Assembly (NCBI GenBank): GCA_964016885.1
Contig: CAXHJY010000796.1
Location: 1 to 64,000, forward strand
Direction of reading: 5' to 3'
Length of the DNA: 64,000 nucleotides
Origin: Eledone cirrhosa
Taxonomy: Eukaryota
How positions within the stretch are numbered: position 1 is the first letter of the stretch; each line of letters begins with the position of its first letter. The notes under the pieces were generated by a model. It saw nothing but the letters and a program-made list of their open reading frames with translations. It did not search any database and was not told the origin of the DNA. Of the stretch, positions 30,800-42,871 are shown piece by piece. A program made the translations under genes and the position numbers.

Positions 30800-30913
<114 letters not shown>

Positions 30914-30945
30914 ATAAACGTGCTGCGTGGTTGCTAATGGGTTAC

Positions 30946-31334
30946 ATATGAATAAAGTTAGTCCTTCATCAGTGATCTTCCAACCATCATTGGTATTTCA
31001 TCGCTTTAAAGACCATATACTTCCGGTTGGTGCGAGCAACGGCTAAGAAGAGTCGTTGCGACACGTAAATAAAGGGGACACGAGAGTGTAAACAAACAAA
31101 GATGGTGAAGCAACGAAAAGTGAATTTATATTCATGGAAATTTGGGACTTGACTCCTTCTTTCTCACTTTTCGTTGCTTCACCATCTTTGTTTGTTTACA
31201 CTCTCGTGTCCCCTTTATTTACGTGTCGCAACGACTTTTCTTAGCCGTTGCTCGCACCAACCGGAGGTATATGGTCTTTAAAGCGATGAAATACCAATGA
31301 TGGTTGGAAGATCACTGATGAAGGACTAACTTTA

Positions 31335-31341
<7 letters not shown>
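30946..31341. repeat. 178-bp near-perfect inverted repeat with 40-nt spacer
   Basis: 30946-31123 vs 31164-31341; two mismatches seen by eye. A diverged family member lies at 45612-45715. Confidence 0.95.
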
Positions 31342-36063: not shown

Positions 36064-36384
36064 GTAGTTAAATAATGTTCTTTTCAGTTTTATTGTTCAA
36101 TTAAATCAATATTTCGGAGATATAGAATCAAATCAATTAAAATCTAAGATATTTGTTCAGCATATATCCTTATGATGTTGTGATTGAATATGCAAAGTAC
36201 ATAAAGGTACCTAGTGCTATCTTTGATACCAACTTGCCGCAAACCGCCCCAAGCCGCTCAAAACCGCCTTTGCTTCTGTGAAACAAAGCCACGTATTGTA
36301 AAAGGTTTCTATTAAAATGAAATATAAACAGCTTCGTATTATATGAAACCACGTTTTATATAACAGTTATGTTACATATAACAT

Positions 36385-36942
36385 TATAATAATTGTTTCT
36401 GCTTTTGGCGCAAGGCCAGCAATTATAACAGTACATTACTGGTACTTTATTTTATCGACCCCGTAAGGATGAAAGGCAAAGTTAACCTCAGCGAGATTTG
36501 AACTCACATCGTAAAGAGATGTAACTACGCTGGAAAGCATGTCTGACCCCTTACCAATACTGCCAATATAATAATGAAATAAATAATAATTGTTTCTACT
36601 TTTGGCACAAGGCCAGCATATTACCAGTGTATTACTGGTACTTTATTTTATCGACCCCCGTAAGCATGAAAGGCAAAGTTAACCTCGGCGGGATTTGAAC
36701 TCAGAATTGCAAGGGCCGTAACTCTATGCGTCAAAGCATGGCGTAATAATTGTTTCTACTTTTGGCACAAGGCCAGCAATTATCCCAGTGTATTACTGGT
36801 ACTTTATTTTATCGACCCCCGTAAGGTTGAAAGGCAAAGTTAACCTCAGCGGGATTTGAACTCAGACCTTAAAGTGCCGTAACTCTTTGCTGCAAAGCAT
36901 GGCGTCCGACCCTCCGCCGATACTGCCAATCCACCGCCCTTG
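36385..36942 (-). mobile_element. Three tandem SINE family A copies
   Basis: aataattgtttct.cttttggc.caaggccagc starts at ~36388, ~36585 and ~36746; the last copy is complete to the head at 36942. Confidence 0.93.
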
Positions 36943-37527: not shown

Positions 37528-38016
37528 TTTCACTCCCCATAAAAGTCGACACGACATTAGAAAGCTAGGGACCATAAATTACGCGAGGACAAACGATTTG
37601 CAAGCACGGCGGAAAAATATAACACATTTTAAAGATTTGCACACTTACATTTACGACAGACAGAAAAAAAAACAGAGCCGCTACATAGTTACCTGGTTTG
37701 CTAGAAAAACCAGTCAAATCTCATTCACATAACAAATTTGAAAGGTTACATGTCTGATCATCGTTCGATAGGTTTTCCCCCATATTTTAAAGAGTGACGA
37801 ATAGTGCAGTTTATAACAGTGATCGCCTCCCGATTTACATTGCGTTTCTCCATATTATATTTATACATACATACACACACACACGCACATATATATATAT
37901 ATACGTGATATCATACTCTGCTCTACGAAAGCATTGAGTGCTCATACGGCTTACCCCATACGGACGCTTTAAGCATCCAACACCAATTATATATATACAT
38001 ATATTATATTATATAA

Positions 38017-38210
38017 GGGGCGGTGAATTGGCAGTATCGGTAGAGGGTCGGACGCCATGCTTTGACGCATAGAGTTACGGCCCTTGCCATTCTGAGTTCA
38101 AATCCCGCCGAGGTTAACTTTGCCTTTCATCCTTACGGGGTCGATAAAATAAAGTACCAGTAATGTACTGGGTTATTTGCTGGCCTTGTGCCAATAGTAG
38201 AAACAATTAT
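38017..38210 (+). mobile_element. Full-length tRNA-derived SINE family A
   Basis: ggggcggtgaattggcagtatcggtag (A box), gagttcaaatcc (B box), core, then tail gtagaaacaattat; sits in TA-rich sequence. Confidence 0.95.
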
Positions 38211-38488
38211 ATTATATATATATATATAGTAATAATATAAATTTCAAGACTAAAATCCAAGGAGGGCTCGATAAGGATAAATACATACAGATGTGAGAAA
38301 AACCACAGACCCTCCATCTCAACTCTACTTTTGAAAAGCAGAAGAACTGCGAAACTGGTAAAGGAACCAAATAAATCTATATATTTTTTAAAAAATAATA
38401 CTCCAGTTGCATTTTCGATTTCATCTCTTTTTCTTTATACTTTCACTCGTGTAGGACACCTCGGTTATTTTTCATTTTGTAAAAAAAA

Positions 38489-38752
<264 letters not shown>

Positions 38753-38790
38753 TCTCTAGCTGTGTCATTCTCGATAAAAGCACTGGATAT

Positions 38791-38833
38791 GTAGTCCTGA
38801 AGATTTCTAACAAGAATGAAACGCGTAGATTAC
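38791..38833 (+). ncRNA. Type I minimal hammerhead ribozyme, copy 1
   Basis: gtagtc CTGAAGA t-ttct-aaca-agaa-t GAAA CGCG TA gattac; predicted cleavage after GUA 38827. Enclosed by a perfect 16-bp stem, 38767-38782/38840-38855. Confidence 0.88.
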
Positions 38834-39100
38834 TTCCCTTGCTTTTATCGAGAATCTAATTGTAATACGTGACGTATTCTATTCTATAGCGATTAGGTCT
38901 TCAAAATGTTTATTATAAACATACAGAATATTTTCGAATATTCTATGTCTATATTCACATATATATCGCTATTTCAGAGCATTTATTCCAATTTCTAATT
39001 TCTGCCGGACCGGCAACCGCTCTTTCAAACCAGTTCCTGTACACAGCTAAGTATTCTATAAGTCTCTAGCTGTGTCATTCTCGATAAAAGCACTGGATAT

Positions 39101-39143
39101 GTAGTCCTGAAGATTTCTAACAAGAATGAAACGCGTAGATTAC
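39101..39143 (+). ncRNA. Type I minimal hammerhead ribozyme, copy 2
   Basis: Identical to copy 1; predicted cleavage after 39137. Confidence 0.88.
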
Positions 39144-39733
39144 TTCCCTTGCTTTTATCGAGAATCTAATTGTAATACGTGACGTATTCTATTCTATAGC
39201 GATTAGGTCTTCAAAATGTTTATTATAAACATACAGAATATTTTCGAATATTCTATGTCTATATTCACATATATATCGCTATTTCAGAGCATTTATTCCA
39301 ATTTATATATATATATATATATATATACATATATATGGAGTGGGGACCGTGTGTGTGTAAGTGTGTGCTTGTGTACATGTGTGTGTGTGTACATGTGTGT
39401 GTGTGTGTGTGTGTTTGTGTGTGTGTGCACGAAAAGAAATATTTATCAATCGTAATAATGACTATTTTCTATAGGTTAATTTGTAGCGTGTTAATTTTCA
39501 ATTGTTGACAATATACAAGGTGAATATTGAACTTCAATCAAATCAATGGATTATAAATATATTCTTTTTCTCTTTATTTACGAAGGACGGAGGTGCTTTA
39601 GCTGAGAAGTGAGAAATCGATATTGAATATATATTCATAATGGGATAAACAACTAAAATGATTAACCATAGTGTACAATTTCGAGATAAACTTTGCTCTC
39701 TTCTCTCAGGCTTACTCTTTCTCTTCCCTTCTA

Positions 39734-42809: not shown

Positions 42810-42871
42810 TCCGGGTTCAATAGGAGGTAACAAGAGTAAGTAAGGTATTCAGTACATAGCAGAATATAAAT

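Follow-up and report, generated by a model that had tools for sequence, protein, structure and literature searches.

The central question raised by this locus, found on a contig of Eledone cirrhosa (CAXHJY010000796.1 of assembly GCA_964016885.1), is why a 310-nt unit should be so rich in self-complementary segments, and whether its fold serves an RNA that is cut out of a multimer and closed into a circle. The original prediction, made from the 64,000-nt stretch analysed (positions 1 to 64,000 of the contig, henceforth the window), saw in it a viroid-type RNA with a selected fold. According to our analyses, the unit represents one monomer of a non-LTR retrozyme that is young, genomic and of a single polarity, and not a viroid. 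We propose that its fold is selected as the scaffold of a hammerhead ribozyme and that the element spreads by a cycle of cutting, ligation, editing and copying by Penelope-like element (PLE) enzymes, a model to which, taken as a whole, we assign a probability of roughly three in four. The retrozyme class and the self-paired fold of its members are already known, the Eledone family being a further member. The features discussed are listed in table 1.

Table 1. Features of the 310-nt retrozyme and its insertion in the window; monomer positions are counted from the predicted cut site.
Feature	Position	Strand	Remarks
Target microsatellite, (TA)n	left flank 38644..38750; right flank 39305-39336
One-armed retrozyme insertion	38751..39304	+	1.8 identical 310-nt units, head-to-tail
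Upstream copy of the 3′ arm	38767..38782	+	predicted partner of 38840-38855 in the uncut precursor (pair probability 0.97-1.0)
Type I hammerhead motif 1	38791..38833	+	stem I 38791-38796/38828-38833; core from 38797; predicted cut after 38827
Predicted monomer, cut site to cut site	38828..39137	+	310 nt; at least 251 near-identical genome matches
5′ arm of the 16-bp stem (outer part of hammerhead stem I)	38840..38855	+	covaries between families; recurrent A-to-G at 38847 (position 20)
6-bp hairpin	38864..38878	+	in sister families a hairpin in the same place, of different, unalignable sequence
Domain closed by the ATAGCG/CGCTAT helix	38886..38972	+	holds hairpin 38906-38922 and the UUCG hairpin 38925-38944
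Insertion end site A	38957..38966	+	monomer 130-139; 1,527 junctions; probable reverse-transcription start
5-bp helix 38976-38980/39019-39023	38976..39023	+	invariant, 98% paired; encloses site B and GC hairpin 39003-39015
Insertion end site B	38992..38994	+	monomer 165-167; 1,152 junctions; probable second reverse-transcription start
acacagcta hairpin	39038..39076	+	family-specific; A-to-G events at positions 216 and 218
3′ arm of the 16-bp stem	39077..39092	+	A-to-G at position 259
Type I hammerhead motif 2	39101..39143	+	core from 39107; predicted cut after 39137

The unit begins and ends where two hammerhead motifs are predicted to cut; the cores of these motifs, at 38797 and 39107, repeat with a 310-bp period, i.e. 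within the 150-450 bp expected of tandem retrozyme units. The G+C content of the monomer is 34%, low as in retrozymes, and we judge it non-coding by inspection of the sequence. The insertion is 5′-truncated at monomer position 234, with a 4-nt TATA microhomology at 38747-38750, and ends at monomer position 165-167 (39302-39304), which makes its 3′ end one of the site B type. Motif scans of the genome returned 13,282 and 14,882 hammerhead matches and none in reversed controls; the copies of the family, which are young and number about 14,000, sit in (TA)n and have ends of the Penelope type, and its arrays reach 28 units. These thousands of genomic copies with retrotransposition ends are at odds with the absence of a DNA phase that defines viroids, and a motif scan of the minus strand of 38751-39304 revealed no hammerhead, where a viroid might have carried one in each polarity. 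Rfam gave no match at the gathering score in the whole window, and no hammerhead or viroid family is among the 28 weak matches near the element. The 16-bp repeat was also considered as the inverted repeat of a MITE, which we ruled out because it runs on into hammerhead stem I and the insertions do not stop at it. As a separate observation, monomer positions 227-235 (39054-39062) hold a TATA-like word, nearly invariant in all three families described below and lying ~45 nt before the hammerhead core; it is a matter of speculation that it could be a promoter starting each unit's own transcript.

All six stems originally listed for the unit are present, although those at 38864-38878, 38906-38922 and 39004-39014, written with a 1-nt loop, each lose one pair because a loop of 3 nt is needed; the arms of the 16-bp stem are exact reverse complements. 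Folded as a circle, the monomer reaches -67.8 kcal/mol (z -4.5), a value equalled by none of 100 dinucleotide shuffles, as the prediction required, and the linear form likewise outdoes all of its 100 shuffles (MFE -72.5 kcal/mol, z -5.23), the stable self-paired fold being that expected of a retrozyme monomer. The minus strand folds similarly well (z -4.96), as is expected of inverted repeats, and the interior taken by itself (positions 29-249, with the closing helix and hammerhead removed) gives z -2.8 (60 shuffles). Elsewhere in the 64 kb, two of 48 non-microsatellite 310-nt windows fell below z -5 (at 31001 and 43711), each overlapping a further fold-back insertion in (TA)n. The description of the unit as dense and viroid-like is overstated: the predicted fold is branched rather than rod-shaped, with 58% of positions paired, -0.22 kcal/mol per nt and six hairpin loops.

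The closest copies (73 units) are nearly all 99-100% identical, so that covariation cannot be measured among them. A diverged copy, however, led to two sister families, B (57 exact motif matches) and C (3,516), which are 63-70% identical and use the same two insertion end sites as the family in the window (family A); a generic stem-I pattern (40 matches versus 23 in the control) served solely to point to the locus L132. Nine copies were folded, with z from -4.4 to -9.3, all showing the same layout. In an RNAalifold analysis of 20 natural copies, omitting two of the 22 representatives (L157, with a deletion, and a second L208 unit), 50 pairs were obtained, 22 of them with two-sided change, and the compensatory changes sought among genomic copies are thus present between the sister families. 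Counted per helix, with the structure of the window copy as the reference, the long helix made of the 16-bp stem and upper stem I shows two-sided change at 12 of its 19 pairs, with 95% of cells paired. Since the alignment rows are related, single copies were also compared pairwise: the changed pairs of this helix stay paired in 11 of 11 cases between A and B (p 5e-6), 11 of 12 between A and C (p 1e-5) and 10 of 11 between B and C (p 2e-4), against a null of ~0.3, the result being weaker with other single copies (7 of 10 and 9 of 11). Within family A, one subfamily has G14A together with C264T.

The remaining helices are conserved to different degrees. The UUCG hairpin has two-sided change at three of eight pairs and is 97.5% paired, hairpin 38906-38922 has one such change, and the helix ATAGCG/CGCTAT is nearly invariant and hence uninformative for covariation. 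Hairpin 38864-38878 and the ATAGCGAT helix have low paired scores (61% and 63%), which reflect alignment register rather than loss, as sister copies fold helices there. The acacagcta stem has 65% of cells paired, keeps only two of six and two of eight changed pairs, and is replaced by other hairpins in the sister families. The proposal that the fold is selected is accordingly supported for the 16-bp stem, hammerhead stems I and II and the UUCG hairpin, but not for the acacagcta stem. Many one-sided changes retain pairing as G-U wobbles, which argues for pairing at the RNA level. The covariation is drawn from three families, so independent events are few; selection likely maintains the fold, mainly because it serves as scaffold for a predicted type I hammerhead in which the 16-bp stem lengthens stem I.

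The hammerhead itself shows further signs of constraint. Of 38 motifs from families B and C, 22 have C3-G8 as their core pair and the other 16 have U3-A8, no mixed state occurring, and this covariation supports constraint on the predicted self-cleavage motif; the same swap is described for PLE hammerheads in the accessible part of PMC4209133. In family A, stem I has one G-U wobble per lineage (277G in 48 insertions, 2G in 23, neither in three, both in none), suggesting few origins and possibly a tuned, weakened ribozyme. Motif 2 has a U-U mismatch at the base of stem II, a palindromic stem III (ACGCGT, 39131-39136) and an A-to-G site at 39103 (position 276). Cutting as a dimer through a palindromic stem III is known for such motifs, and the palindrome would imply it here: stem III of the monomer amounts to one pair, capped by a palindromic loop, whereas two co-folded hammerhead segments reach -22.3 kcal/mol versus 2 × -8.1, a gain of ~6 kcal/mol. 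In the circle, imposing hammerhead stems I and II costs 6.7 kcal/mol above the MFE, which counts against the model; a double hammerhead is thought, in the partial accounts available, to permit cutting in multimers while sparing monomeric circles. As to other sequence sources, contigs of four sequencing runs of unrecorded type have common variants at hammerhead positions 284, 287 and 295, and a motif taken from a loose end of the run contigs had no match in the genome. A 340-nt contig (depth 10-26, from three runs with other organism labels) was left unused, because a circle and a tandem repeat would give the same contig.

The ends of the insertions point to PLEs as the probable agents of mobilisation. 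The arrays have variable 5′ ends and 3′ ends fixed at site A or B. Among 42 insertions not selected by their ends (15 of them picked for 100% identity), 33 consist of two arms placed head-to-head, and the 28 two-arm insertions with both ends visible include 26 of the A+B type and none with A+A or B+B. They hence display the inverted, 5′-truncated arm and the tail of 30-40 bp at one end by which PLE-mobilised insertions are recognised: these A+B ends, with sites 26-35 nt apart, fit both the inverted arm and 30-40 bp 'tail' of PLEs (in the accessible text of the preprint PMC8557442) and their two adjacent internal starts of reverse transcription (PMC11167929). PLE-like reading frames adjoin hammerheads in the genome (L135 and L139). 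We take these frames to be PLE-like on the strength of their motifs; a Pfam search with four such frames named none and produced one weak unrelated match, and a comparison covering 16 loci found no pLTR common to the family and an autonomous PLE.

A second line of evidence comes from A-to-G changes, tallied in 72 of 102 insertions (those that are young and have at least 1.8 units) with single-unit changes at positions 120-170 and near the cut ends ignored. Among variants present in the whole insertion, A-to-G makes up 11 of 24 site-by-background events, compared with 6 of 80 single-unit changes (p 6e-5), and 10 of these 11 events lie in helices, which hold 41 of the 93 A's (p 0.002); counted per site over all 102 insertions, 8 of 13 A-to-G sites are in helices, which is not significant (p 0.14). 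ADAR edits double-stranded RNA and, judging from the sequence pattern, is the likely source of these changes, whose concentration in helices supports the RNA fold. They are nearly all-or-none (15 whole-insertion events versus one multi-unit patchy case), the same edits recur on two to four backgrounds, and both arms share them; the change at position 276 is found in 840 units genome-wide, in runs spanning both arms and on three backgrounds among the matches listed. That all units, in both arms, have an edit in common speaks for a single circular template. Some arrays are unexplained by a single unchanging monomer circle: in one arm of L260 (G000:C1:61292900-61301000) the edit at position 276 sets in after four units, whereas it is present all along the other arm; a pair of variants recurs in units 1, 3 and 6 of a single L261 arm; and L009/L010 have a 4-unit repeat. 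The higher-order patterns of L261 and L009/L010 need a multimeric template or later duplication. It is a thought on which our judgement is evenly balanced that the genomic copies act as a fossil structure probe, two Penelope reverse transcriptases having carried ADAR edits from the helices of single circles into both arms at each successive lap; the DNA of the family would then record both the presence of the fold in the germline and a retrotransposition that runs round a circle, edits arising even in mid-copying (L260).

The same observations decide how seriously to take a transposition via uncut linear multimers, in which the fold is selected for hammerhead function and for recognition by the reverse transcriptase and a circle is unnecessary. 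Such a route is unlikely in our estimation, albeit far from negligible: unprocessed RNA is inserted by the anole PLE in vitro, equally well when the hammerhead is mutated (PMC11167929), the patterns of L261 and L009/L010 agree with it, and the stem II base and stem III of our motif are weak, yet linear units edited independently of each other should be patchy, whereas the A-to-G changes are nearly all-or-none and alike in both arms. A homogenised edited source array could explain some of this uniformity, but not so readily the recurrence of edits on several backgrounds.

If a circle is formed, its closure is a separate matter, and here the earlier notion that the 16-bp stem brings the two monomer ends together finds little support. 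The end-to-end path in the predicted fold measures 19.4 links versus 19.1 in shuffles, 17 of 40 of which are shorter, and close ends are common to most RNAs according to the accessible part of PMC6193969. Measured from the stem, the 5′ end is 12 nt and the 3′ end 45 nt away, and the stem runs on into hammerhead stem I, so the idea that it poises the ends for ligation survives indirectly, via the ribozyme stem. For the uncut 1.8-mer precursor, pairing of the arms is predicted across each cut site (probability ~1) and not within the monomer (~0), i.e. between units, so that a cut monomer must exchange partners. That the stem joins the ends and the hammerhead itself then ligates the circle is for these reasons, and given the single stem III pair of the monomer, rather improbable, even though, in the refolded stem I, the 5′ end is paired to the 5′ strand of the hammerhead itself and type I hammerheads are capable of ligation. 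In the accessible part of the same account of that capability (PMC7229834), axolotl and mussel monomers self-ligate to 3% and ~1%, as against >80% and ~30% with RtcB. The cross-junction pairing, the ends being no closer than in shuffles and the dimer cleavage implied by stem III make a host ligase likelier than self-ligation.

The cycle that we favour would begin with a multimer produced by read-through transcription of a tandem array. A long helix is predicted to form over each unit junction, and two hammerheads to pair via their palindromic stem III and to cut as a dimer. The freed monomer would swap helix partners, its own arms pairing and stem I re-forming around the 5′ end, and closure would likely be accomplished by a host RtcB-type ligase, as suggested by the published assays on other retrozymes; a circle with a single hammerhead would resist re-cutting. 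Judging by the A-to-G changes, ADAR likely edits the helices of the paired RNA. Finally, cleavage of (TA)n and copying of the RNA, starting at two fixed internal sites, would likely be the work of a PLE-like endonuclease and reverse transcriptase; copying probably runs round the circle, giving rise to the multimeric head-to-head arms, which, like the ends, are observed.

Two further explanations fare much worse than this cycle. That the inverted repeats are by-products of DNA fold-back or template switching, which copies one arm to the other with no selected RNA structure, could draw on the equal folding of the two strands, on the abundance of fold-back insertions here and on the strand change of the element during insertion, but is hardly tenable in view of pairs surviving only as G-U wobbles (not expected of arm-copying), a C3-G8/U3-A8 swap that concerns a tertiary ribozyme pair, and A-to-G events in helices on the ribozyme strand. 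An autonomous viroid-like RNA, replicating from RNA to RNA by rolling circle and occasionally reverse-transcribed into the genome, would share the size, self-pairing and hammerhead, and RNA-RNA replication has been raised as an option for mussel, where cloned circles failed to match genomic copies (accessible part of PMC7229834), yet it is scarcely credible for a branched, AU-rich fold with a hammerhead on a single strand, no Rfam hammerhead or viroid match, and thousands of near-identical genomic copies that suffice as templates.

The Avsunviroidae are self-paired RNAs of ~300 nt in which hammerheads cut multimers, and the Eledone element resembles hammerhead viroids and viroid-like satellite RNAs in these three respects, the cutting being predicted here; unlike viroids, it is genome-encoded and spread as DNA, has its ribozyme in one polarity and leaves the hammerhead unblocked in the predicted fold. 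Their multimers, too, are possibly cut by a dimer of hammerheads (for hammerhead viroid RNAs see also the accessible text of PMC7761336). The metazoan non-LTR retrozymes of coral, mussel and axolotl and the newt satellite 2, as far as the available portions of PMC7229834 and bioRxiv 10.64898/2026.07.22.740005 go, share with it tandem units of 150-450 bp that are non-coding and contain one type I hammerhead apiece, a G+C content below 50%, a predicted self-paired monomer, thousands of copies and several families per genome, and two axolotl motifs have the same U-U at the stem II base and palindromic stem III. What sets the Eledone family apart from these accounts is that its arrays come in head-to-head pairs, inserted in (TA)n with two fixed ends, and that covariation and editing marks support the fold beyond the ribozyme, whereas the metazoan folds are reported there as predictions; expression and circles, on the other hand, are demonstrated there for metazoan retrozymes, the evidence on the Eledone element being genomic. 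With PLEs (PMC4209133, PMC8557442 and PMC11167929, in their accessible parts) it has in common the type I hammerhead, palindromic stem III, U3-A8 core variant, 5′ truncation, inverted arm, two adjacent internal starts and AT-rich or microsatellite targets, but unlike them it lacks an open reading frame and has many full units per arm.

Retrozyme circles are usually termed 'highly self-paired' on the basis of folding programs alone, whereas the compensatory changes of three families and the editing marks tell which helices matter, namely the ribozyme-closing helix, the hairpin at the UUCG position and the domain around the two insertion start sites, as distinct from those that do not. Our literature search found no paper in which covariation or editing marks resolve helices in this way; supplements may list related families. 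The family also offers a concrete template for testing PLE copying of RNA circles, which has been proposed, a demonstration not being found in the accessible literature.

Several other repeats were seen alongside. A near-perfect fold-back with ~190-bp arms in (TA)n (30910-31340, z -39) is probably another short head-to-head insertion, and an insertion with inverted ends lies between (TA)n tracts at 43752-44270 (z -6.7). The palindromic element at 42860-43005, which resembles the loci L130 and L131, has hammerhead-like cores that lie on opposite strands, and its stem II is similar to the one in the 310-nt family. Genome-wide, a canonical-core hammerhead pattern had 5,135 matches versus four in controls, and the loci L090-L119, L135 and L139 comprise hammerhead repeats of 465-470 nt, from a family unrelated to ours, and PLE-like frames with other hammerheads at their flanks. 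At 36373-36930 and 38009-38226, a SINE-like repeat reminiscent of octopus SINEs is present in several copies, in both orientations, and an exact 97-bp duplication flanks a (TA)n tract at 49595-49790.
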